From positions 2,693 to 66,692 of the forward strand of contig JAGVZN010000025.1 in assembly GCA_018302605.1 (NCBI GenBank): DNA of 64,000 bases, written 5' to 3'. Below the pieces are notes generated by a model that was given only the letters and a program-made list of their open reading frames with translations, did no database searches and was not told the origin of the DNA. The position numbers and the translations under genes were made by a program. Source of the stretch: Candidatus Woesearchaeota archaeon. Lineage in GTDB: Archaea > Nanobdellota > Nanobdellia > Woesearchaeales > GW2011-AR9. Of the stretch, positions 1,088 through 64,000 are shown piece after piece (the first letter of the stretch is position 1; each line of letters begins with the position of its first letter).

Positions 1088-3592
1088 TCACCCGAACCGA
1101 TCAAGACTTCTCTGCTCTTCCAATCGTTTCACTTTTATCTTGCGCATCAGGTCGTCATCACGCTCCAGCAGCCGTTGAATTTCCTGCGCCCTGGCAATGA
1201 CCGGCTGAGGCAGGCCGGCGGCCTGCGCTACGTGGAGGCCATAACTCTGGTCCGTTCCTCCGGCAATCAGTTTCCGTAAGAAGACAACGTTCCCCTGTTC
1301 TTCTTTGACGGCAAGGTTATAGTTTTTTATTCTCGGCAGCTTCTCCGCCAGGGAATTCAAGACGTGGTAATGTGTTGCAAAAAGCGTTTTCGCTTTAAGC
1401 ACGTTATGGATATGCTCAGCGACGCTCCAGGCGATGGAAACGCCATCAAAAGTAGATGTCCCTCGGCCGATCTCATCCATGATCAGCAGGCTTCGTTCCG
1501 TGGCATTATGAAGGATTGCTGCGGTTTCAGTCATCTCCAGCATGAACGTGGACTGTCCTGAACTGATATCGTCAGCAGCTCCGACGCGGGTGAAAATCCG
1601 GTCGACGATACCCACCAGCGCTTCCTCGGCCGGAACAAAGCTGCCAATCTGGGCGAGGAGGACGATCAGCGCCACTTGCCTCATGATTGTACTTTTTCCC
1701 GCCATGTTTGGGCCGGTAATCAACATCATCTCTCCGGCAGCGAGTGAAATATCATTGGAGATGAAGCGCGGCTCGACTCGTTCAACGACTGGATGGCGCG
1801 CCTTGCGTATCTGGAGGACACTCTCGTCTACGAAGTGCGGGCGGCAGTACTGATATTCAACTGCCGTCTTGGCAAAAGAGCAAAGCACGTCAAGCATCGC
1901 TAATTTCCGGGCGATTTCCTGAAATTGTTCAATGTGTTGGAGAAGATCCTGAAGGATCTGTTGATATAATTGATACTCCAATTCGTTCATCTTCTCTTCG
2001 GCGGTAAGGATCTTTTCTTCAATCAGCCTTAGTTCTTCCGTGATAAACCGTTCGCCTTGGGCCGTCGTCTGTTTTCTGATGTAAAGAGCAGGGACATTTT
2101 CGAGATTTTTCTTTGCCACTTCGATAAAATAACCAAAGACGCGGGTATATCCGATTTTGAGATGGGCGATCCCGGTCCGCTCTCTTTCCCGCTCCTCGAT
2201 ATTCTGAAGAAAACGCCGGCTGTCTCTCTTGATTGTCGCCAATTCAGCTAATTCAGGGTGAAATTCTGGTTTGATCATCCCCCCTTCCCGGATCGTAGCG
2301 GGAGGGTCATCACGCAACACTCTGATAAGAAGATCAAGCATCGGCGTCAGCAGCGGCAATGATTTTATCTCCTGAAGCAATGGCGACGAAGGTGCGTTTT
2401 GCATTTTCAGTTGAATGTTTGGAATGGACTGCAGGGAAGTACGAAGCGAGATCAGATCACGTGGAGAAGCCGTCCCATACTGAACTCTCCCCATCAAACG
2501 TTCAATGTCGGCAATTTTTGTGAGGAGAAAACGCAGTTCTTCACGAAGAATCATCTCTTTAGCCAGAATCTCCACCGCATCCAGCCGTTGTTCGATCTCT
2601 TTCACATTGAGCAGCGGCTCGCGCAGCCATTTCCTGAGCAGCCGTGATCCAGCCGCGGAATTGGTCATTTCCAAGATGGAAAGAAGTGTTCCCCGCGGGC
2701 TTCCATCGCGGATGTTCTGGAGGATTTCCAGATTGCGGAACGTACTGGCATCGAGCAGCATCGTCTGCTGGTTGCTGCGCAGGACCAGAGTCTTGATATG
2801 GGCTGCTGAATTCTTCTGTGTATCAATGACATAATGAAGAAGAGCGCCAGCCGCACCGATCATGGAAGAATCTGCACTGATTCCAAAAGAATCAAGGGTG
2901 GGCCGCTGGAAGTGATCCAACAATTTCTGCCCAGCATTTTTCTTGCTGAAAAAATAATCATCAAGCGTGTTCACGGCACAGCCTTGCGCTTTTATCTGCT
3001 GGATCAGTTCGGTGTTAACCTGCAGGCTTGCGGGAATGATGCACTCTCTCGGCCGAAGCCGGACCAGATCGTGCAGGACTGCACTCTCCTGAGCATGACT
3101 GGTTACCCAGAATTCTCCGGTGGAAATGTCGCACCAGGCGACGGCATGTTCATCTTTGGAAACGGTTAATGCCAAAAGATAATTATTTTCTTTTTCTTCG
3201 AGGATCGACGATTCGATCACCGTTCCGGGTGTTACAATCCGCACCACGCCGCGCTTGACCAGCCCTTTGGCTAGCTTTGGATCTTCTAATTGCTCAATGA
3301 TCGCCACTTTGTGGCCTTTTCGGATGAGTTTGCCCAAGTAGGGATCGAGTGCATGAAAAGGAATCCCGGCCAAAGGCGCGCGTCTTTCTCCCTTTCCCCG
3401 AGCAGTAAGTGTAATTTCCAGTTCCCGCGCCGCAGTAACTGCATCTTCATAAAACATCTCGTAAAAATCCCCCATACGCAGCATGATCAGGCAGTCGGGA
3501 TGGATTAGTTTGGCATCACGATATTGTTTCATACCCGGAGTAAGGTTCTCCGGTTGAACATCAAAGACGCTGGGGGGGTCTGCCATATCCAT
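1088..3592 (-). CDS. mutS: DNA mismatch repair protein MutS (MutS1 type)
   Basis: N-terminal TPGMKQY..GDFYEMFYEDA..LAGIPFHA, Walker A GPNMAGKST and DEIGRGTS motifs. I place the start at the ATG at 3592 (MDMADPPS), 19 nt downstream of a TTTAAA box. The longer track ORF (to 3745) reads through a repeat element. Confidence 0.9.
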   Translation of the reverse strand: MDMADPPSVFDVQPENLTPGMKQYRDAKLIHPDCLIMLRMGDFYEMFYEDAVTAARELEITLTARGKGERRAPLAGIPFHALDPYLGKLIRKGHKVAIIEQLEDPKLAKGLVKRGVVRIVTPGTVIESSILEEKENNYLLALTVSKDEHAVAWCDISTGEFWVTSHAQESAVLHDLVRLRPRECIIPASLQVNTELIQQIKAQGCAVNTLDDYFFSKKNAGQKLLDHFQRPTLDSFGISADSSMIGAAGALLHYVIDTQKNSAAHIKTLVLRSNQQTMLLDASTFRNLEILQNIRDGSPRGTLLSILEMTNSAAGSRLLRKWLREPLLNVKEIEQRLDAVEILAKEMILREELRFLLTKIADIERLMGRVQYGTASPRDLISLRTSLQSIPNIQLKMQNAPSSPLLQEIKSLPLLTPMLDLLIRVLRDDPPATIREGGMIKPEFHPELAELATIKRDSRRFLQNIEERERERTGIAHLKIGYTRVFGYFIEVAKKNLENVPALYIRKQTTAQGERFITEELRLIEEKILTAEEKMNELEYQLYQQILQDLLQHIEQFQEIARKLAMLDVLCSFAKTAVEYQYCRPHFVDESVLQIRKARHPVVERVEPRFISNDISLAAGEMMLITGPNMAGKSTIMRQVALIVLLAQIGSFVPAEEALVGIVDRIFTRVGAADDISSGQSTFMLEMTETAAILHNATERSLLIMDEIGRGTSTFDGVSIAWSVAEHIHNVLKAKTLFATHYHVLNSLAEKLPRIKNYNLAVKEEQGNVVFLRKLIAGGTDQSYGLHVAQAAGLPQPVIARAQEIQRLLERDDDLMRKIKVKRLEEQRSLDRFG

Positions 3593-3617: not shown

Positions 3618-3631
3618 ATTATTGTAATCAA

Positions 3632-3791
3632 GGGCCTAGTAAAAAAAGTCGTCCGCCTGGCCTGAAGATTGACCGTGGGAAGCGATCTCCAGAAACAGGT
3701 GCGAAAACAAGCAACTTGAATGGCAGATCCCGCAACCATTAACACAACTGGTTTTCGCCGCGGTCGCCAGGACGACTTTTTTCACAGAGCT
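3632..3791 (+). mobile_element. MITE-like hairpin element, family A copy 1 (160 nt)
   Basis: The termini AAAAAGTCGTCC...GGACGACTTTTT pair with each other. The element is flanked by the direct repeat (T)GTAATCAA at 3623-3631 and 3791-3799. It is homologous to 11819-11981 and 44910-45071. Confidence 0.7.
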
Positions 3792-4215
3792 GTAATCAAA
3801 TGAAAGAAAGACAGCTCACTTTTTTCACCAATTTTTTTTACCAAAAAATCACCGTAAATTCCTTTTCCTGTTGAAAAGAATTACCCCTTTTTCTCCGACG
3901 AGAAAATAAAAAGAATCGTCGTGAAAAAAAAGAGGGAAACATTAATATAAGATAACCTCTATACTAGAATCATCAATTAAAAGAGGTGTGTGATTCAATG
4001 GCTAAGAAAAAAGCAGCTGCTAAGAAAAAAAGACAATAAGTAGGCATTGTCCTTAGCTCAGCATTTGGTTATTCTTTCTTTTTTTTTCTTTTTATCATTC
4101 TTTCTCAAAACCATTTTCTTTCAGAATCATCCTCTCTCAGAATCATCCTTTCTCTGGTTTTGCTTCCGTTTCTTTTCCGAAGATTAGTTTGAGGACTATT
4201 TGAGAATTAGTTTGT

Positions 4216-6929: not shown

Positions 6930-7057
6930 TAAAGAGAAGTTTGAATAATTCAATTATTGATTTACAAACTTCTCAAGAGGAGGTGAAATAGTCGTAATTT
7001 TGGCTTGAACCAAACGATTTATTTACCAAAATTACTCTTTTTCAAACTCCTCTAAAG
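6930..7057 (+). repeat. Mosaic hairpin element, family D copy 1 (two hairpin modules)
   Basis: GAGAAGTTTGAATAATTCAATTATTGAT..CAAACTTCTC and GTAATTTTGGC..CCAAAATTAC hairpins. This copy is the reverse complement of 39681-39869 minus two inner hairpins. Confidence 0.6.
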
Positions 7058-7082
7058 AAGAATAACCGGAGGATTGAGATAC

Positions 7083-9823: not shown

Positions 9824-9979
9824 GTATTTGTTTAGCTTTTCCGGCAGGCCGCGCATCCGAGCGGAAATCTGCAAAGGTATTTTCTGCTTCTCGCTGTGAA
9901 CCAGAAGATTTCCGCGCCAAGCTAGGAACAAAATCTCTTCAGATGCGCATCTTGGCCTTGCCGCCAGCTAAACAAATAC
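9824..9979 (-). mobile_element. MITE-like hairpin element, family C copy 1 (156 nt)
   Basis: Termini GTATTTGTTTAGCT...AGCTAAACAAATAC. A perfect 8-bp direct repeat GGAAATTA sits at 9816-9823 and 9980-9987. The element lies between two convergent stop codons. Confidence 0.75.
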
Positions 9980-10290: not shown

Positions 10291-11793
10291 TTACCCCTTC
10301 ACATTGCCGATTGGCTTCAACGCCACGACCGGCCGGGTAATCCCCGCTTGATCTAAAGTATCGACAACAACGTCAATGTCTTTATACGCTTCTCCTGCTT
10401 CTTCGGCCAAACCTTTCATCGTTACGGCATGAACATAGATTCCCCGTTGTTCCATATCGTGCTGTAATTTTTCGCCTTTGATCGTACGCATCGCCTGCGC
10501 TCGGCTCATCGTCCTTCCAGCGCCATGGGCCGTAGAGGCAAAAGTCGTATCGGCGCTGTCCGTCCCTAAGAGAAGATATGATCCAGTTTCCATTGACCCG
10601 CCAAGGATGATCGGCTGGCCAATTTTTTGATATTCTGCCGGTAGATCTTTTGCCCGGGCTGGGCCAAAAGCGCGTGTTGCTCCTTTGCGATGGACGAGCA
10701 ATGTTTTTTCTTTTCCGTCAATGACATATTTTTCTAACTTGGCAATATTGTGAGCGACATCATATACAAGGTTCATTTCCATCTCTTCTGCCGTCCGGCC
10801 CAAAACCTTGCTGAATACTTCACGGATGCGGTGCGTGATGACTTGCCTGTTGGCAAACGCCATATTCGCCGCACAGGCCATCGCTTTAAAATAATCTTGT
10901 CCTTCCGGCGAATAAAATGGCGCACAGGCCAATTCTTTGTCGCGGATTTCAATGCCATATTGAGGCATGACATCTAAAAAGAGCCGTAGATAATCTGTAC
11001 CGACCTGATGGCCCATGCCTCTGCTGCCGCAATGGACCATCACGACAATCTGTCCCGGCTTGCTAATTCCCATCACTTTAGCTGCTTCTTTGTCAAAAAT
11101 ATTCTCTTCTTTCACGACTTGGATTTCTAGATAGTGATTACCGCTTCCTAAAGTTCCCAACTGATCAAAGCCGCGCTTGATCGCCCGATCTGTTACTTTG
11201 CTGGGATCCGCCCAGGTGATTTTCCCGTGATCTTCGATATGTTCGATATCGCGCGGCGTGGCCAAGCCTTTCTTCAGACACCATTGTGCACCGTCACGCA
11301 TGACTTCTTGGAATTCTTCTTTAGAAATCTTGATAAAGCCTTTACAGCCGACGCCTGCCGGGACAGCTTTGTATAATTCATCAACTAACTGCTTGATCTT
11401 TGGCTGAACTTGATCGATAGTCAGATTTGTCGTCATCAGGCGCATACCGCAATTGATATCAAAACCGATGCCGCCGGGCGAGATGATGCCTCCGGCATCG
11501 ACATCAAACGCGGCAACTCCACCGATCGGAAAACCATAACCCCAGTGGCCGTCAGGCATACAATAGGCATAGCCAATAATGCCCGGTAGTGTGGCTACAT
11601 TGGTCACTTGTTCAAAAACACCCGCATCCATGCTCTTGATCAATTCTTCGTTGGCAATAATTCGTGCGGGAACGCGCATCCCTTTCTTGTACGATATTGG
11701 CAATTCCCAAGTCGTATCATTGATCTTCTTTAATTCTGGCGGAGGGCCGGCGGGTTTTTGGTCATGTTCCATAGTCTGGTTGTTCTTTGGCAT
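10291..11793 (-). CDS. rtcB: RNA-splicing ligase RtcB (tRNA exon ligase)
   Basis: Full-length match to the RtcB pattern (GFDINCG, HCGSRGMGHQ, HGAGR). The start may be the second ATG at 11772, given the TATA box at 11797-11806. Confidence 0.9.
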   Translation of the reverse strand: MPKNNQTMEHDQKPAGPPPELKKINDTTWELPISYKKGMRVPARIIANEELIKSMDAGVFEQVTNVATLPGIIGYAYCMPDGHWGYGFPIGGVAAFDVDAGGIISPGGIGFDINCGMRLMTTNLTIDQVQPKIKQLVDELYKAVPAGVGCKGFIKISKEEFQEVMRDGAQWCLKKGLATPRDIEHIEDHGKITWADPSKVTDRAIKRGFDQLGTLGSGNHYLEIQVVKEENIFDKEAAKVMGISKPGQIVVMVHCGSRGMGHQVGTDYLRLFLDVMPQYGIEIRDKELACAPFYSPEGQDYFKAMACAANMAFANRQVITHRIREVFSKVLGRTAEEMEMNLVYDVAHNIAKLEKYVIDGKEKTLLVHRKGATRAFGPARAKDLPAEYQKIGQPIILGGSMETGSYLLLGTDSADTTFASTAHGAGRTMSRAQAMRTIKGEKLQHDMEQRGIYVHAVTMKGLAEEAGEAYKDIDVVVDTLDQAGITRPVVALKPIGNVKG

Positions 11794-11806: not shown

Positions 11807-11818
11807 TTTCTTCGAGAA

Positions 11819-11981
11819 AAGCTTAGGAGAAAAAGTCGTCCGCTTGGCCTGAAGATTGAGCGTGGGAAGCGATTTACAGGAACAGGTGTGAAAACCAGCG
11901 ACGGGAATAGCTCGTACGCAACCATCCACACCACCGGTTTTCGCCACGGTCAATGGCCAGGAGGACTTTTTCTCCAGAGCC
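11819..11981 (+). mobile_element. MITE-like hairpin element, family A copy 2 (163 nt)
   Basis: Homologous to 3632-3791. It is flanked by TTCGAGAA (11811-11818) and TTCGGGAA (11982-11989). Confidence 0.7.
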
Positions 11982-12074
11982 TTCGGGAAGGCACAATCTT
12001 TTTTGTGAGTGATAGTGAGCCGCTTATTCGTTTTGAATGTGAATTTTTATAAATAATCCCCCCAAAAGGTCGTC

Positions 12075-17039: not shown

Positions 17040-17210
17040 TTTGTGCTAAACATTTGTTTATTTTGAGCGGGATAAACCCAGCAGGACAAAACAGATATTT
17101 AAAGATTGTGAAAATAATAAACAAAGGGAAACTATTCTTGTCAAAATATTAATATACTAGCAGAAAGTGGCTGAAGCATTAAACATAAGTTCAAATGGCG
17201 AGGTGTGAAT

Positions 17211-18230
17211 ATGAATGAAAAGAGAATTTGTGCAGAATACCTGTGGTTGGATGGAAATGAACCGCCGCAGATTCGCAGTAAAATGAAAGTTATGGAACAG
17301 CCGGGTGGGGGCACACCACTTGCGTCTCCTGAGTGGGGCTTTGATGGAAGCAGTACAAATCAGGCCTCCGGTGCTGATTCAGATTGTGTTTTAAAACCAG
17401 TACGGACATATCAGGACCCGATCCGCGCCGGAGGAAAAGGTGGTCATCGGTTAGTATTAAACGAAGTTTGTTTGTCCAACGGCAATCCTCATCCTTCCAA
17501 TACGCGAGCTGCTCTTTCTAAAGTAGTTGAGAGACATGCCGATGAGGGATTTTGGTTTGGGATAGAACAGGAATATACGCTGTTCAAAGACGGCCGTCCA
17601 CTCGGTTTTCCCGCGGGAGGATTTCCTGAACCGCAGGGGAAATATTATTGCGGTGTTGGCGCAGATAAGGCCTACGGCCGCGAATTGGTGGAACGCCATC
17701 TCCAGGCCTGTCTTGATGCAGATGTCTTAATTGCCGGAATCAATGGCGAAGTCATGCCCGGACAATGGGAGTTTCAGATCGGAACGGGCGATCCTTTACG
17801 TGTTGCCGACGATCTTGTCGTCGCTCGCTGGTTATTAGCTCGTCTGGGAGAAGACTATGGCATCAGTGTTTCTTTTGAGCCAAAACCACTGAAAGGCGAT
17901 TGGAACGGTGCGGGGGCGCATACCAATTTTTCAACGGCAGCGATGCGCGAAAGCAATGCCGGGTTTGATGCGATCATCGAAAAGCTACGCGCTCACCACG
18001 CCGAACACATTGGCGTGTACGGGCCAGGTATCGAAGAGCGGCTGACCGGCAAACACGAAACTTGCAGTTATCGAGAATTTCGGGCAGGTGTTTCTGACCG
18101 CGGGGCAAGCGTCCGTATCCCCTGGCAGGTTGAGCGTGATGGCCGAGGTTACATGGAAGACCGCCGGCCGTGTGCCAACATCGATCCGTATGTTGTGCTG
18201 GAAAGAATTATCAGGACGGTGAGTGAGTAG
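17211..18230 (+). CDS. glnA: glutamine synthetase, type II (eukaryote-like GSII)
   Basis: YLWLDG, WGFDGSSTNQA, GINGEVMPGQWEFQIG, DWNGAGAHTNFS and RLTGKHET..GVSDRGASVRIP motifs. ATG at 17211 follows GAGGTG. Confidence 0.85.
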   Translation: MNEKRICAEYLWLDGNEPPQIRSKMKVMEQPGGGTPLASPEWGFDGSSTNQASGADSDCVLKPVRTYQDPIRAGGKGGHRLVLNEVCLSNGNPHPSNTRAALSKVVERHADEGFWFGIEQEYTLFKDGRPLGFPAGGFPEPQGKYYCGVGADKAYGRELVERHLQACLDADVLIAGINGEVMPGQWEFQIGTGDPLRVADDLVVARWLLARLGEDYGISVSFEPKPLKGDWNGAGAHTNFSTAAMRESNAGFDAIIEKLRAHHAEHIGVYGPGIEERLTGKHETCSYREFRAGVSDRGASVRIPWQVERDGRGYMEDRRPCANIDPYVVLERIIRTVSE

Positions 18231-18498
18231 GATTTCTTGTTTTTTTGTTTTTTTTCTCGTTCCATCTGGAAGCAGGAAACGAGATAAAAATGCGAAAGAA
18301 CGAAATGATTTGGGATATGATTTATGGGCAAGAGAACATGGATATGGGCATCGCTGGAAGGCGACAGAAGGGATTTTTAGCGCAATTAAGCGCATCTTTG
18401 GAGAGCAAATTCATGCGAGGTCAGAGCTGGGGATGATTCAAGAAGCAAAAGTAAAGTTTTGGGCATATCAAAGGATGAAACGCCATGGCGAAGCGTAG
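18223..18498 (+). pseudogene. C-terminal fragment of a DDE transposase (IS remnant)
   Basis: YGHRWKATEGIFSAIKRIFGE...IQEAKVKFWAYQ matches the C-terminal signature of IS4/IS5-like archaeal transposases. The N-terminal catalytic part is absent. Confidence 0.5.
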
Positions 18499-24850: not shown

Positions 24851-25046
24851 GGGCGCGTAGTTCAGTGGTACTTCGCTGGAATTCCAATGGTTTGCCGGAA
24901 GCACAACAGAATGCACCGTTCGCAACGGTGAGATCTCGGGTTCAATCAGATGTCACGTCATCTGAAAGACGAAGCGACTTCGCAGATTTGCTCAGTCGCG
25001 AATAATTTAGAGAGGTCGTGAATCTTTGAAAATCCCGACGCGTCCA
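24851..25046 (+). tRNA. tRNA-Ala(CGC) with a D-loop insert and an 86-nt T-loop intron
   Basis: Acceptor GGGCGCG/CGCGTCC with the G3:U70 Ala identity pair. D stem GTTC/GAAT is split by about 38 nt (24871-24908). The anticodon arm CACCG-TTCGCAA-CGGTG is intact. T stem TCGGG/CCCGA has the loop TTCAA[24946-25031]AT. Confidence 0.75.
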
Positions 25047-26126: not shown

Positions 26127-26343
26127 TTGTCTATGCTCTCAACAGTGAGTTATCTGAATTATTGAGAGATTCTTTAAATATGTTTCTGCTCGGTTTTCGG
26201 CACAGTTCATTTTCTGAGTGATGAAAAAATCTAAAATCACTCACTTTTTTTCTGTGTCCTTTTTTTTCGAATGGCAGATACACGGGCTAAGGCCGCATAA
26301 TTCATCAGAATCTCCATGCGCTCCATAGGCAACTATTTTAAAA

Positions 26344-26565
26344 ATGGGAAAATCACTCACTTTTCGAGGTATAATGAAAATAGTTATAGGGGGATTGTTG
26401 TTGCTTAATGCCTATGTTTGGCCATTATGGATGGGCATTGACGGTTGGGTTGCATGGGTTGCTGTTTTAATGGTTCTTGGTGGTGTATTAAAATTAGTCG
26501 CACCAACCTGTCCTCATTGCGCAGCAATGTGCGGTGGAGTGATGGAAGCTAAGAAAAAGAAATAA
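26344..26565 (+). CDS. small membrane protein with C-terminal CPHC..C motif (73 aa)
   Basis: Two TM helices. ORF only. Confidence 0.45.
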   Translation: MGKSLTFRGIMKIVIGGLLLLNAYVWPLWMGIDGWVAWVAVLMVLGGVLKLVAPTCPHCAAMCGGVMEAKKKK

Positions 26566-28495: not shown

Positions 28496-30208
28496 TTAGT
28501 TCTCAAATAAATTTTCTATTTCTCTTTTTAGATATGCAGGAACACTCTCAGATACAACTTTGTATGTATCTTTATGTTTAAAGAAATCTCTTTGTCCTGA
28601 GTCAACATCTACAAATTTAGATTTTTCATACTTCTTGTATATGATGTCAAATAATTGTTTTACTGGAGATTCGTTAAATTCAAATGATTTACTATTCAAT
28701 TTTTTAAAGAGTTCATTTAGTTTAAGATTATTATTCAAATCACTGCAATGGTCATAAATTACTCTTAATACATGGAAAGAAGCTAATTTGTGAAATCTCT
28801 TTCTTTTTTCTCCGCGATAGTTTTTACCTATCCTCGAAATATAATCCCATATAATGTAAGGTATTAAATAATCTAATGGTGTTTTTTTGTCTTTAAAAAC
28901 ATCACTAAAATGGCTTGAAAATAGGTCATCCTCATGTGCGTGTGAGGTGTGGGGAAGTTTAATTATCGCCAGATTACACTTAATCAAATCTATATTTTTT
29001 ACACATTTCAAAGCATTTATTCTTGAAGATTTTGCTCTTTCTTCCCTAAATTGTCCCTCTTTTCTTTCAAAATAATAACCTAATGTTTCTAAATGTCTTT
29101 GTAATCTGACTTGGAGAGGGTGATTTGACTTTAACATTCTTTCATCAACGGGAGTTTGTCTGTTGTTTGCTTCGATTATACCATCAATTAATTCTTGATT
29201 GATTAAACTGTCTCCAATTTCAACAATCTTAGCAAACAAACAAGAATCACTAGGTCTATTTTCTCCTATTGTGCTAATAGTTTGACAACCATTTATTATT
29301 TGTGGATTCTTTAAGATTATTTTTTTGTCTTCTTTTAACAAAGTAACTTTTTCTGATAAAATAGTTATTCCATTGTTGAAATACCAGAAATTTTGAGGCT
29401 GTTCTGCCAGAGTGTCTTTCATAGCTTTATTAGGTTTCTTCGATTCACTATAAAATATTCTTACATTTCTTGAAAATAACTTTTCTTGTATTTGTTTAGC
29501 TGGCGGCAAGGCCAAGCGGTGTATCCACAGAGACTTTGTTCCTAGCTAGGTGCGGAAATCTTCTGGTTCACCGCGAGAGGCAGATTCACTTGAGATATTT
29601 ATCAAATAGGCATTAGGATTTTTTGGTCCCTCCATAAGTTCCAAATACGAAATTTCAACATCTCCTAATTCAGGGGTATGCCCATGCTTCCATTCTTCAT
29701 ATTTTCGTTCGATTTCTTTTGCGGAGATTATTTCTACGCCCTGACATTTATTGTCATAAATTGAGTAGTTTGGATTAGATTTATTTGTGGTAATAAAGTA
29801 CAACTTTACTTTATATCCGTCCTCTTTTATCAATCTTATAGCTTTGTCTAATTTTTCTTTTAAACTCGCATGGATATACGCTCTTAATTCGTAATAATCA
29901 AATGTTCCAGTTAGATACTCATAGACTTTATTTAGTTTGTTCAGTTCATCTTTGTTAAATGGGGATTCTCCAATCTCTCTAGAAAATTTAGATTGAATTA
30001 TTTTTATTGTTTTTATGTTGTGATCTATAATCACAGCATCACTTCCAGCATCTTTCCCTCTGTCTGTAATTACTTCAGTTATTTCAGAATCAGCTAAATT
30101 TTCTGTATCTTTGATATACCAAAAAATGAATGCTCTAAAATCTTTTATCTTAAAACGATTACTTATCTCATCTATCTCTTGTAAAAATTGAGTTTTCCAG
30201 TTAGCCAT
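28496..30208 (-). pseudogene. AIPR-family abortive-infection protein, interrupted in frame by a repeat element carrying a TAG stop
   Basis: ORFs 29546-30208 and 28496-29515 are in the same frame and separated by one TAG. The C-terminal part has AIPR hallmarks (LFSRNVRIFY, FWYFNNGITI). The gene is strongly AT-rich. Confidence 0.7.
29488..29585 (+). mobile_element. family C element, truncated copy (about 96 nt) inside the AIPR coding sequence
   Basis: Matches the first ~96 nt of the 9824-9979 element (read on its minus strand), beginning GTATTTGTTTAGCTGGCGGCAAGGCCAAG. Confidence 0.6.
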
Positions 30209-38764: not shown

Positions 38765-38769
38765 GTGTT

Positions 38770-39060
38770 AAAACGCGGAGTATTCCACCACTCTCCACAG
38801 TGAAAAGAATATTTCACTGGGACACTAATGAAGTCGTTGCTTCATTAAGTGTTTCGAGTGGTGGTTTGCAAGCAAACCACTTATTTATCAGTGGAATACT
38901 TGCGTGCAAGAAATGAGAAAACGATCTCATTTCTGCACAGAAAACAAATCGTTGTTTGTTTTCTTGTGCTCAAAATTAGGCAGGGGTGAGCGAAGCGAAC
39001 ATGCCACCGGTCTATTTGACCGGTGGTCCCCTGCCTATTTTGACAAGAAAGAGTACTATC
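38770..39060. repeat. array of 5-6 intergenic hairpin modules (family D/E mosaic, copy 3)
   Basis: It shares ATCTCATTTCTGCACAGAAA with 39681-39869, and shares CCACAG-hairpin-TGGGAC..AATGAAG..TTGCTTCATT with 44786-44838. Confidence 0.5.
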
Positions 39061-39655: not shown

Positions 39656-39680
39656 GCGCTGACATTACCTTGTTTCTTTC

Positions 39681-39869
39681 TTTAGAGATGTTTGAAAAAG
39701 AGTAATTTTGGCAAATAGGTTGTTTATTTCTAGCCAAAATTACGACCACCAGAAATAGAACAGAGATTCTATTTCTGTGCAGAAATGAGATAGTTGTTTC
39801 ATCTCTTGCATTTCAAATTCTCTGGAGAAGTTTGGAGATCAATAATTGAATTATTCAAACTTCTCTTTA
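39681..39869 (-). repeat. mosaic hairpin element, family D copy 2 (four hairpin modules)
   Basis: It is the reverse complement of 6930-7057 with two extra hairpins inserted between the shared modules. Similar 13-mers flank it: CCTTGTTTCTTTC and CCTTGCGTCTTTC. Confidence 0.6.
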
Positions 39870-44040: not shown

Positions 44041-44379
44041 TCATGATATTTCTCCAACAATCACCGGTGCTTTTTCAATCTTTCCTTTATCTTCCGAGGG
44101 ATTACTTTTCCTCAGCTGATTGATGTAGCCGACGATTTCTTTAACGTTATCTGATGCAAAGACCACTTTGGCATTTTTAGGAAGCGGGCTATGCCGGCAA
44201 TTCTTGCAGACAAAGCGGCTGACGGCCGTGCTGATCTGCAGATAATTACAATGCGGACAATGGGCCAGCGCAAGCTGCTTGCTTCCTTTACACCCATAGC
44301 AGATTTTACTATAGCGATGGATCGTCTGGAAATACGAATCACATTTAGTACAGCGCCTTATCTTTGGAGATAATTGCAT
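44041..44379 (-). CDS. double zinc-ribbon protein (112 aa)
   Basis: Four CxxC pairs: CTKC..CYGC and CPHC..CKNC. Confidence 0.5.
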   Translation of the reverse strand: MQLSPKIRRCTKCDSYFQTIHRYSKICYGCKGSKQLALAHCPHCNYLQISTAVSRFVCKNCRHSPLPKNAKVVFASDNVKEIVGYINQLRKSNPSEDKGKIEKAPVIVGEIS

Positions 44380-44765
44380 TGGTTACACAGATGGGTGGTT
44401 ATTGCTCGTTTGATATAATATGACCCGTCGAAGTTGACGCCCAGGACATTGTCATTGTGTTCTTTCATCTGGATATTGCAATGCGGACAAAAAGCATCTT
44501 TCATTTCTTTTCTCTTTCCTTTTGCCGAGAGATAAGAATGGTAGAGCGAATGTCGAATGTGCATGGGCTTATTTTTGGAAAATACTGCTGTTTTCACATC
44601 ATCCACCCCCCTTATCAGTTCATCTATAGTAATAAACGAATATGTTTCTAAAAAGTGATTGAAGATATATTCTTTCTGTATATGAAGTATATTCTTCTTT
44701 GGAAATTCCTCTTTTGAAAAAGGCACGTACTTCTTTCTTTTATGCAAAAATAGCCAGAAAACCAT
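44358..44765 (-). CDS. zinc-ribbon protein (up to 135 aa, start uncertain)
   Basis: C-terminal CPHC...CNQC. The annotated ATG lies inside an upstream hairpin, so a later start (for example M68) is possible. Confidence 0.4.
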   Translation of the reverse strand: MVFWLFLHKRKKYVPFSKEEFPKKNILHIQKEYIFNHFLETYSFITIDELIRGVDDVKTAVFSKNKPMHIRHSLYHSYLSAKGKRKEMKDAFCPHCNIQMKEHNDNVLGVNFDGSYYIKRAITTHLCNQCNYLQR

Positions 44766-44875
44766 TGACTTTAGTCAATGGATGTCCACAGCAAAGCTAC
44801 GACTTTGCTGGGACGCCAATGAAGCCTTTGCTTCATTGACGGCTTCACGCATTTTTATGATTTTTTGGCTTAACA
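44766..44875. repeat. three tandem intergenic hairpins (family E modules)
   Basis: CATTGACTTTAGTCAATG, CAGCAAAG..CTTTGCTG and CAATGAAGCCTTTGCTTCATTG. The middle part is homologous to 38795-38848 with compensatory stem changes. Confidence 0.55.
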
Positions 44876-44909: not shown

Positions 44910-45071
44910 GGCTCCGGAGAAAAAGTCCCCTTGGCCATTGACCATGGCAAAAACCAGTCGTGTTCAGTGTTGCAGAACTCGCCATTCAAGCATATCGTTT
45001 TTGCACCTGTTCCAGGATACCGCTTCCCACGGTCAATCTTGAGACCAGGCAGACGACTTTTTCTCCTAAGC
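44910..45071 (-). mobile_element. MITE-like hairpin element, family A copy 3 (162 nt)
   Basis: The reverse complement aligns over its full length with 3632-3791 and 11819-11981. Confidence 0.7.
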
Positions 45072-45081
45072 ATTTATCATC

Positions 45082-45257
45082 GTACGTATTAAGTCTGTGC
45101 TTGGGCAGGTCGGCCTGCCTCGTCTCGCCCGGAAATGGTAATCAACTTCTCTCCAAAAATATTCTCGAAGATGAGCGAAACTCTGAATTTCTTGCTCAAA
45201 GCCAACGCTCGGCAGGCCATCTTGACCAAGCCCGCACAGACTTAACTTAATACGTAC
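45082..45257. mobile_element. MITE-like hairpin element, family B (176 nt)
   Basis: Terminal inverted repeat GTACGTATTAAGTCTGTGC / GCACAGACTTAACTTAATACGTAC. The 8-bp direct repeat TTATCATC sits at 45074-45081 and 45258-45265. Confidence 0.7.
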
Positions 45258-50696: not shown

Positions 50697-50739
50697 AAAT
50701 GAGTGTTAGCGTTATAGTTTAAAGACTTTTCTCTCCCGC

Positions 50740-50800
50740 GTATTTGTTTAGCTGGCGGTAAGACCAAGAGAGGCCAGGCGGCTGACTTTTTTGACAGAGC
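50740..50800 (+). repeat. 61-nt chimeric remnant joining a family C left end to a family A-type right end
   Basis: GTATTTGTTTAGCTGGCGGTAAGACCAAG is followed by GGCCAGGCGGCTGACTTTTTTGACAGAGC. Confidence 0.5.
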
Positions 50801-50898
50801 CATTCCAACCAGAATGTTTATATAGGCTGCCTTTCTTTTCTTGAAATATATATATCCCCTCCAAAAAATCAAACTGGATATATGTTATCTGTGATCTT

Positions 50899-52630: not shown

Positions 52631-52855
52631 GCAGGGGTAGCAAAGCCTGGTCAAATGCGCAGGACTTAAGCCCCATAACGGAACACCAATCAGCATGATT
52701 GGCTTCATCGCGAAGATATCCTGTTCCTTAGTGGATTCGGGAGTTCAAATAGATGTCACGTCACCTGAAAGACGAAGCGACAATCGCTGATCTCAATCAC
52801 GATGTCGCAGGAATTCAAAAGAGGGCGTGTATCTTTGAAAGTCTCCTCCCCTGCA
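52631..52855 (+). tRNA. tRNA-Leu(UAA) with a canonical 37/38 intron (47 nt) and a 92-nt T-loop intron
   Basis: Acceptor GCAGGGG/CCCCTGC plus A73. 3-bp D stem GCA/TGC. Anticodon stem CAGGA/TCCTG with loop CTTAAG[52671-52717]A. Long variable arm. T stem GGGAG/CTCCT with TTCAA[52749-52840]GT. A TATA box lies about 27 nt upstream. Confidence 0.75.
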
Positions 52856-52861
52856 CTTATC

Positions 52862-52879
52862 GCCCCCGTGGCTCAGTGG
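52862..52879 (+). other. orphan copy of the first 18 nt of tRNA-Thr, fused to intron-like sequence
   Basis: GCCCCCGTGGCTCAGTGG is identical to 53005-53022. It is followed by CAGATGTCACGTCACCT, which is the 5' end of the T-loop intron family. Confidence 0.5.
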
Positions 52880-53004
52880 CAGATGTCACGTCACCTAAAA
52901 TGTGAAGAAAATCACATTTTTGTGCAAAAATAGGTTTAGAGTTCCTATTTTTTGCATCTGAAAGACGAGGTGACCTGCGCTGCGCTTAGTCACCAGAAAT
53001 TATT

Positions 53005-53135
53005 GCCCCCGTGGCTCAGTGGTTGAAGAAATTCCACGAAAGAGCGTGTCCTTGGTATGCGAAAACAAACAGGACAAGGTCGCGAGTTCAATTGCTGATG
53101 TCCAAAACATCATCCTGAAAATCTCGCCGGGGGCT
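53005..53135 (+). tRNA. tRNA-Thr(GGU) with three short inserts (D-loop, a 13-nt 37/38 intron, a 29-nt T-loop intron)
   Basis: Acceptor GCCCCCG/CGGGGGC. D stem GCTC/GAGC is separated by about 24 nt. Anticodon stem TGTCC/GGACA with loop TTGGTA[53058-53070]A. T stem GCGAG/CTCGC with TTCAA[53092-53120]AT. Confidence 0.7.
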
Positions 53136-58829: not shown

Positions 58830-58832
58830 CGG

Positions 58833-58994
58833 CTAATATGAAACCCTCTCGCGTTGCTCGGTTACTGCCAGCTCCGCACTTGCTGTAGAACACAATCAGC
58901 GACGTTCCCCGTAGGGGGCAACCCCCTTGTCGCTTTGATATTTCTATCGAGAGTACTCCGCAAAGGGCAGTAACTTTAGGGTTTCATATTAGCC
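58833..58994. mobile_element. MITE-like hairpin element, family F (162 nt)
   Basis: 17-bp perfect terminal inverted repeat GGCTAATATGAAACCCT / AGGGTTTCATATTAGCC. The 10-bp direct repeat AAGAGTAGCG sits at 58823-58832 and 58995-59004. Confidence 0.75.
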
Positions 58995-62254: not shown

Positions 62255-62261
62255 ACGACAG

Positions 62262-62413
62262 GCTCTGTAGAAAAAGTCAGCCGCCTGGCCAAGAGGTTGC
62301 CTGAGAACTGCAATGAACTGAAGTTATTGGTGCTGCTCAGCCGTATCCCGAGTAGCAAGAGCAGCACGAAGGCAACGGCCAGGCTGACTTTTTCGAGATT
62401 TTCTACAGAGTCC
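62262..62413 (+). mobile_element. MITE-like hairpin element, divergent family A copy 4 (152 nt)
   Basis: Family A termini (GCTCTGTAGAAAAAGTCAGCC...GGCTGACTTTTTC..CTACAGAG) with a different core. The perfect 9-bp direct repeat GAACGACAG sits at 62253-62261 and 62414-62422. Confidence 0.75.
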
Positions 62414-63861: not shown

Positions 63862-64000
63862 CACCCTTTCTTGATGGGTGAAGTGAAGAGAATGTGATAT
63901 ATAAAGGTTTCTTGGGCTGGGCACAATCCGAAAAGTGAGTGATGGTGACGCCAAATGGTCGCTGAAGGATAGCTATAATACTAGAAAATGCGAGATGGCT

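Follow-up and report, generated by a model that had tools for sequence, protein, structure and literature searches.

The 64-kb stretch of DNA analysed here, hereafter the window, is part of contig JAGVZN010000025.1 from a Candidatus Woesearchaeota archaeon, and it carries dispersed copies of a short hairpin repeat, family A, which was predicted from the letters alone to be a miniature inverted-repeat transposable element (MITE). The population to which the window belongs has a GC content of 44%, and it is also represented by contigs that are 99.8-100% identical to the window, among them the Rifle aquifer assemblies ANAN16-1_SAMN03842431 scaffold_3716, JGI 3300002502 and JGI 3300025323. The RtcB protein encoded in the window shows 89% amino acid identity to that of the Woesearchaeota metagenome-assembled genome (MAG) JACOZP01, and approximately 80% to those of many Woesearchaeota and Nanoarchaeia MAGs; MutS, a DUF483 protein and a DHH protein are also encoded. 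The features that concern family A, with the boundaries that fit the family consensus, are the following:

3623-3632: left target-site duplication of copy 1, either TGTAATCAA at 3623-3631 or GTAATCAAG at 3624-3632, with a 1-nt ambiguity in the boundary
3633-3791, plus strand: family A copy 1 (subtype A1), a hairpin MITE of 159 nt with the termini GGCCTAGTAAAAAAAGTC and, as reverse complement, AGCTCTGTGAAAAAAGTC
3791-3800: right target-site duplication of copy 1, either TGTAATCAA at 3791-3799 or GTAATCAAA at 3792-3800
11820-11981, plus strand: family A copy 2 (subtype A1), 162 nt
18223-18498: C-terminal remnant of an IS5-family transposase (NF033579 positions 222-288, E 1.2e-10)
44910-45072, minus strand: family A copy 3 (subtype A1), 163 nt, without a recognisable duplication
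50770-50801, minus strand: family A half copy, one terminus plus subterminal sequence (reverse complement GGCTCTGTCAAAAAAGTCAGCCGCCTGGCCTC)
62261-62412, plus strand: family A copy 4 (subtype A2), 152 nt

The four full copies had been placed correctly to within 1 nt in the original prediction; the half copy, which is fused to a half copy of another, unrelated MITE family (50739-50769), had been missed. All the copies are intergenic. Copy 1 is located 41 nt upstream of the start of MutS (ATG at 3592, minus strand; 47 nt if the start is at 3586), just beyond a TTTAAA box, and copy 2 is flanked by the divergent promoters of RtcB (start at 11772, minus strand) and of a gene encoding a protein of 254 amino acids (12075, plus strand). 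Copy 3 is separated by 8 bp from an unrelated MITE at 45081-45257, the gap being the left duplication of that MITE (45073-45080), and copy 4 is found 68 nt upstream of a small open reading frame (ORF). No promoter-like box was seen within a family A element. The intergenic DNA occupied by the window copies, immediately upstream of promoters, is tolerant of insertions, and we infer that the positions of the copies reflect this tolerance and not a function.

The three A1 copies share 76-80% pairwise identity, whereas copy 4 has approximately 30 nt in common with them at each end and an overall identity of 57-58%; a copy in the Woesearchaeota MAG JACQNE01 (locus L182) is 93% identical to copy 4. 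A 20-nt pattern describing the terminus matched five times in the window, where 0.03 matches were expected. The 18-nt consensus of the terminus is GGCTCTGTAGAAAAAGTC at one end and GACTTTTTCTACAGAGCC at the other, and the termini of the window copies agree at 15-18 of the 18 positions either with this consensus or with the variant present in the full-length elements described below (GGCTTAGTAG..., ...AAAATCTC). In copy 4 the left terminus is identical to the consensus at all 18 positions, and the right terminus corresponds to the other insertion-sequence end (GGCTCTGTAGAAAATCTC) at 17 of 18. Every full copy forms a single long hairpin, as had been claimed, with energies from -62 to -73 kcal/mol (z from -3.7 to -5.6) that none of 200 shuffled sequences matched. 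A single stop-free frame of 50-54 codons runs across each full copy; at such a length this is fairly often expected by chance, and the frame is not taken as coding. The window gave no match to Rfam 15 at the gathering thresholds, permissive E-values gave chance-level matches over copies 2 and 4 (E of about 5, 10-15 bits), and ARAGORN reported no tRNA in the window.

The sequences flanking the elements were analysed in a set of 63 short elements (130-205 nt) carrying both termini, obtained from the fetched loci and from the window, 62 of which had enough flanking sequence. The two flanking 9-mers are identical in 30 of these 62 elements and agree at seven or more positions in 48, while in two control comparisons of neighbouring or shifted 9-mers the agreement peaked at 2-3 of 9 positions and never exceeded five. 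No two of the 30 perfect duplications have the same sequence, save one pair that is common to two tandem copies. Given that the 9-mers vary from site to site and are absent from the controls, they represent target-site duplications and not element sequence, an alternative that the original prediction had named as arguing against it; their length is 9 bp and not the 8-9 bp that had been proposed. In the window, the repeats around copies 1 and 4 that had been described as perfect are so with the boundaries then used (TGTAATCAA at 3623-3631 and 3791-3799 for copy 1; GAACGACAG, with a shift of 1 nt, for copy 4), and they agree at eight of nine positions when the consensus boundaries are applied (GTAATCAAG/GTAATCAAA and TGAACGACA/CGAACGACA, respectively). 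The bracketing repeat claimed for copy 2 is present as TTCGAGAAA (11811-11819) and TTCGGGAAG (11982-11990), with agreement at seven of nine positions.

A search for insertion sequences with matching ends, which the original prediction had called for, revealed elements of 890-910 bp that have the same termini, the same 9-bp duplications and one ORF encoding a DDE transposase of 274-303 amino acids (L145/L228, L164, L172/L229, L110, L233 and L302-L309). Perfect 9-bp duplications flank five full-length elements (L233, L251, L253, L279 and L282). At three loci the termini were found approximately 900 bp apart, with an intact ORF of 283 codons in L145, one of 279 codons in L172 and a frameshifted one in L164; in L110, a MITE with a perfect duplication lies 36 bp away from a 900-bp element whose ORF encodes 303 amino acids. 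The full-length elements end in GGCTCTGTAGAAAATCT at the side of the transposase start and in GGCTCTGTAGAAAAAGTC at the side of its stop. The transposase matches the Pfam domain DDE_Tnp_1 (PF01609) with 42.2 bits (cutoff 23), and its sequence shows the motifs DGTGF, MDKGFD and YWQRNIVECLFSALKRLFG; the best NCBIfam model is NF033579, which is matched over its full length with 118-127 bits. The ends of the short elements can be traced to those of the long ones. A1 has two AAAAAGTC-type ends, and the GGCTTAG variant at its left end is also a terminus of full-length elements from the Rifle metagenomes, one of which (L302, 44.2% GC) carries one GGCTCTG and one GGCTTAG terminus, like the A1 copies; A2 has one end of each full-element type, and this explains the 'GAGATTTT' bulge close to the right end of A2. 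Beyond approximately 18-20 nt, nothing in the MITE cores resembles the inner part of the insertion sequence.

Other kinds of partner were considered and discarded. The 'GGnnnTG' ends and repeats of 8-9 bp recall the IS1 family, which was dropped because the full-length element encodes an IS5-type DDE transposase; for REP/BIME elements with a RAYT (Y1) transposase, the 9-bp duplications and the associated DDE transposase gene led to the same outcome. The statement that the window holds no intact transposase and only a C-terminal fragment at 18223-18498 was borne out, and the fragment is a genuine IS5-family C-terminus, placed directly after an ORF of 341 codons (17205-18230) that appears glutamine-synthetase-like by eye. 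As a remnant of the partner it was rejected, given that the identity is 33% over 36 amino acids only and that no terminus or terminal repeat is found nearby; tblastn of the fragment against all the fetched elements gave no match. It is the remnant of a different IS5-family element.

A profile built from three of the partner transposases retrieved 67 loci from genomes, nearly all of them labelled as Woese-, Nano- or Pacearchaeota or bearing unspecific or doubtful archaeal labels, three being short contigs in bacterial-labelled MAGs. The same profile retrieved more than 212 loci from metagenomes, including Ga0209541, Ga0209542 and C687J35174, and in the last two the partner transposase and the population of the window are both present; partner lineages thus exist in the same Rifle community. 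The insertion sequence is widespread in Woesearchaeota and other DPANN archaea.

The short elements are also numerous, as the original prediction would have them. When one genome per species was searched, the exact 18-mer GGCTCTGTAGAAAAAGTC was found in at least 112 stretches, nearly all archaea-labelled and many of them at contig ends, and in at least 26 archaeal assemblies, mostly of Woesearchaeota and Nanoarchaeota; JACQNE01 alone has at least 15 loci and contains both subtypes. The exact 18-mer was found in no viral contig, and a degenerate pattern of the terminus gave mostly chance matches in the genome collection, being real only in six contigs of JACQNE01. Clustering of the cores revealed at least nine unrelated types that have the termini alone in common. 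Subtype A1 has nine members, restricted to the window and JACQNE01, and subtype A2 has 16, which are 53-98% identical and come from the window and from about ten other assemblies or species with a GC content of 35-45%. A spread across phyla, as suggested by the labels Methanosarcinales, Thorarchaeota, Nitrosotalea and 'Bacteroidetes', was not accepted since these labels are doubtful. In the MAGs named 'uncultured Methanosarcinales archaeon', including the element-bearing CAYIZT01 and CAYWPJ01, RtcB is 66-82% identical to that of the window, which is within the range of the Woesearchaeota MAGs, so that this name is probably mistaken; the remaining doubtful names are attached to very short contigs (1.3-4 kb). 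The spread of the family is accordingly claimed within Woesearchaeota and Nanoarchaeota only. As a separate observation, in CAYYQL01 (L202:5127-5417) two different MITEs with family A termini are arranged in tandem and the 9-bp unit CTGATTGAC is present in triplicate, which would fit an insertion of the second element at the duplication of the first.

From these analyses we conclude, with a probability of about 0.9, that family A consists of MITEs, i.e. short non-coding derivatives that keep only the terminal inverted repeats, of approximately 18 bp, of an IS5-family insertion sequence of approximately 900 bp. The 9-bp duplications, the termini common to the transposase-bearing element and the many dispersed copies support this interpretation, which is the one originally proposed. 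By analogy with other IS5-family DDE transposases, the transposase of 274-303 amino acids, supplied in trans, would bind termini of the form GGCTCTGTAGAAAA(A/T)(G/C)TC, excise or copy the element, and insert it at a target cleaved with a stagger of 9 nt, where gap repair would then generate the 9-bp duplication. The copies in the window are old, as indicated by their mutual identity of 76-80%, and are probably fixed in the Rifle population, and the family is presumably inactive in this genome at present.

An unoccupied counterpart of one insertion was found. In the closest genome, JACOZP01 (L383), the divergent pair formed by RtcB and a gene for a protein of 255 amino acids is kept and the element is absent. 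The latter protein is 29% identical (E 8e-36) to the 254-amino acid protein of the window; it was recognised by synteny, and searches of the genome collection with peptide patterns had returned no relative of the 254-amino acid protein. The spacer between the two genes measures 101 nt in JACOZP01 vs 302 nt in the window, and the difference of 201 nt leaves room for the 171 nt of the MITE plus its duplication. A TATA-like promoter sequence beside RtcB can be recognised in both, and the remainder of the spacer is too diverged for a base-by-base alignment; it is, therefore, an unoccupied orthologous site and not a precise empty site. The search for empty sites that had been suggested thus yielded an orthologous spacer without the element, but no base-precise site with a single flanking repeat. 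For copies 1 and 4 the predicted empty sites are TTATTGTAATCAAATGAAAG and GTTGYGAACGACAGAAACTC, respectively, and a search for paralogous empty sites among all the fetched loci returned self-matches only. Independent assemblies of the population of the window break inside or beside MITEs, as expected of dispersed repeats, and one contig (L218) that could be taken for a variant of copy 3 is better explained by an assembly jump across the palindrome.

Several results weigh against the interpretation of family A as MITEs of this insertion sequence. The flanks of copy 3 are alike at only five of nine positions, which is no duplication; the original prediction had claimed none there. The near-identical Rifle contigs all carry copies 1 and 2 and so offer no empty site, searches with exact protein sequences having yielded either this same occupied population or nothing; the exact site predicted for copy 4 has no match in the metagenome collection, and no base-precise empty site was found among the fetched loci or, for copy 4, in the metagenomes. 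No autonomous partner is present in the window, where tblastn detected no relatives of the partner transposase, and none could be tied to the same genome. The transposases also score under the curated cutoff of NF033579 (118-127 vs 140 bits). Finally, the inner helices covary, which is unexpected if the core is purely neutral filler.

This last point was approached by aligning 15 A2 copies that come from about ten species and are 53-98% identical. Their terminal helices do not vary, as would be the case for sites bound by a transposase. In helix 4, double-sided changes were observed at all seven pairs, which are 100% paired with no wobble (G-U) pairs, and the covariation score was 0.245, a value that none of 500 shuffles reached (0.086 in shuffled alignments), with slid partners scoring 0.04 at most. 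The stem of the inner hairpin, as read from the sequences, is compensated between subgroups (GCTGCTC/GAGCAGC, GCCGC/GCGGC, GCCACTT/AAGTGGC and CTTTTTC/GAAAAAG). Three features recur across core types: a bulge of the sequence CCG, one of 6 nt that resembles AAGAGG, and a side hairpin whose loop is ATTCGTAAGAC. In L262 and L279, two distant full-length relatives, the motif TTCGTAAGA is found approximately 20-30 nt in from one end, and it may derive from a subterminal site of the insertion sequence.

The compensated helices and the recurrent bulges and motifs favour the idea that the core of the A1/A2 group is under selection as a folded module, namely a rod whose asymmetric bulges are fixed, together with a three-way junction and the recurrent ATTCGTAAGAC loop, kept across Woesearchaeota species by compensatory changes; such a module may be needed to mobilise very short elements (through single-strand fold-back or subterminal transposase sites), or it may be a structured RNA or a regulatory or protein-binding element beside promoters, exapted by hosts with reduced genomes. 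However, both strands fold equally well, with a mean energy difference of -0.2 to -0.6 kcal/mol; the plus strand is the better one in no more than 15 of 25 copies, the few G-U pairs occur on both strands, and no sign of an RNA specific to one strand emerged when this was tested. The other core types with family A termini are AT-rich and poorly structured, and there is no Rfam match. It must also be considered that palindromes can keep their symmetry through template-switch repair (quasipalindrome mutagenesis); a helix 4 changed without wobble intermediates fits a DNA palindrome corrected in this way, or founder effects in a few subfamilies, and not a strand-specific RNA, and related sequences can beat shuffle controls without structural selection. 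We regard a selected core as possible but unlikely.

A quite different proposal, that family A is a multi-copy small RNA gene whose inverted ends are the closing stem, and not mobile DNA, draws on the same strong hairpin folds and on some of the covarying helices. It does not account for the perfect 9-bp duplications of differing sequence in half of the 62 copies, for terminal 18 nt that are identical to the ends of the transposase-bearing element, or for at least nine unrelated cores with the same ends, and neither a strand bias in folding nor an Rfam match was obtained; it is highly improbable, being effectively refuted by the target-site duplications together with the insertion-sequence termini. 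Least credible of all is that each copy is a separate full-length insertion-sequence remnant that decayed in place by internal deletion: the insertion-sequence termini, and the one end of each type kept by A2, would suit it, but the same core is found at different sites and in different genomes (nine A1 and 16 A2 members), indicating that the short form itself multiplied, and the cores differ from the interior of the insertion sequence.

Besides family A, the window contains other repeats of similar appearance. A second hairpin MITE family, with termini GTATTTGTTTAGC..., is represented at 9824-9979, where it is flanked by a perfect 8-bp duplication (GGAAATTA), at 29488-29584 (minus strand) and by the half copy at 50739-50769; it also occurs in JACQNE01 (L020). 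The element at 45081-45257, next to copy 3, represents a third MITE family; it ends in GTACGTATTAAGTCTGTGC, is flanked by a perfect 8-bp duplication (TTATCATC) and is 77-86% identical to five loci of JACQNE01. Further hairpin repeats are located at 58831-58994 (termini GGCTAATATGAAACCC, perfect 9-bp duplication AAGAGTAGC, 92% identical to L193) and at 38768-38950 (92% identical to L152), and others common to other Woesearchaeota MAGs at 6930-7059, 39678-39869, 38905-38977, 26199-26363 and 63920-63986. By rough addition, hairpin repeats make up about 3-4% of the window. At 44760-44850, at the 5' end of the ORF 44358-44765 (minus strand), there is a strain-variable cluster of short palindromes; two otherwise identical contigs from other samples (L216 and L219) have there a different segment of approximately 92 nt with a hairpin of its own (GAAGCCGTCTC...GAGACGGCTTC), part of which is 90% identical to a Nanoarchaeia locus (L135).

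The region 53006-53134 (plus strand) looks like a tRNA gene with several introns (GCCCCCGTGGCTCAGTGG ... GAGCGTGTCCTTGG ... CAAGGTCGCGAGTTCAAT ... ATCTCGCCGGGGGCT), missed by ARAGORN and Rfam, with a second copy of its 5' part 143 nt upstream. Related pieces are found at 52863-52900, 52743-52781 and 24940-24978, and the motif GATGTCACGTCACCTGAAAGACGAAGCGAC occurs at three places.

The genomes of DPANN archaea are small and reduced, yet this window of 64 kb holds at least five families of hairpin repeats, at least three of them with target duplications. Linked to its insertion sequence, the 18-bp terminus with the 9-bp duplication provides a marker that is of use in annotation, in accounting for assembly breaks, in the recognition of mislabelled bins, and in following gene flow among Woesearchaeota. 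The compensated helices hint at a constraint on the cores of very short MITEs; apart from this possible constraint, family A is an ordinary selfish repeat.

In archaea, MITEs are known from Sulfolobus, Halobacterium and Haloquadratum (review PMC10969869), and in a census of 8220 archaeal genomes a Woesearchaeota genome was among the densest, with 105 MITEs per Mb (PMC11602168), which the repeat load of the window fits. Family A resembles the MITEs of prokaryotes, including archaea, in its length of 130-205 nt, in having identical terminal inverted repeats with an insertion sequence, in duplicating its target site and folding into a hairpin, and in its intergenic location and many copies, and, as with other archaeal MITEs, several families are found in one genome. 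It is a well supported but ordinary kind of element. In the searchable literature, neither the family, nor its 18-bp terminus, nor its link to an IS5-family partner of approximately 900 bp was found to be described, the sequence files of PMC11602168 not being covered. With Correia/NEMIS, ERIC, RUP and QMITE2 (the last described in PMC10969869) it shares long imperfect hairpins, terminal inverted repeats, duplications of 7-9 bp and a frequent position beside promoters; unlike them, family A pairs without strand bias and is known here from its DNA sequence alone.

The partner is best compared with IS903. The nearest annotated relatives in plasmid records are less than 30% identical to its transposase and are mostly haloarchaeal IS5-family elements. 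IS903 is approximately 1.05 kb long; its ends start with GGC, its inverted repeat of 18 bp is GGCTTTGTTGAATAAATC, and its direct repeats measure 9 bp (ISfinder). The partner shares with it the 9-bp duplication and the GGC-starting ends, which read GGCTCTG in the full-length termini; the termini GGCT.TGT.GAA.AA.TC, in which 14 of 18 positions agree with the IS903 repeat used for comparison; the presence of one DDE transposase ORF, which extends into the terminal repeat; and NF033579 as the best NCBIfam model, against which the IS903 transposase from a Klebsiella plasmid scores 353 bits. In contrast, the partner transposase is a distant relative, only 22% identical to that of IS903 (E 5e-5), the element is shorter (890-910 bp), its hosts are archaea, and its score of 118-127 bits is below the NF033579 cutoff of 140. 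Because it fails this curated cutoff the partner is not filed in the IS903 group; it is an IS5-family insertion sequence that is IS903-like.

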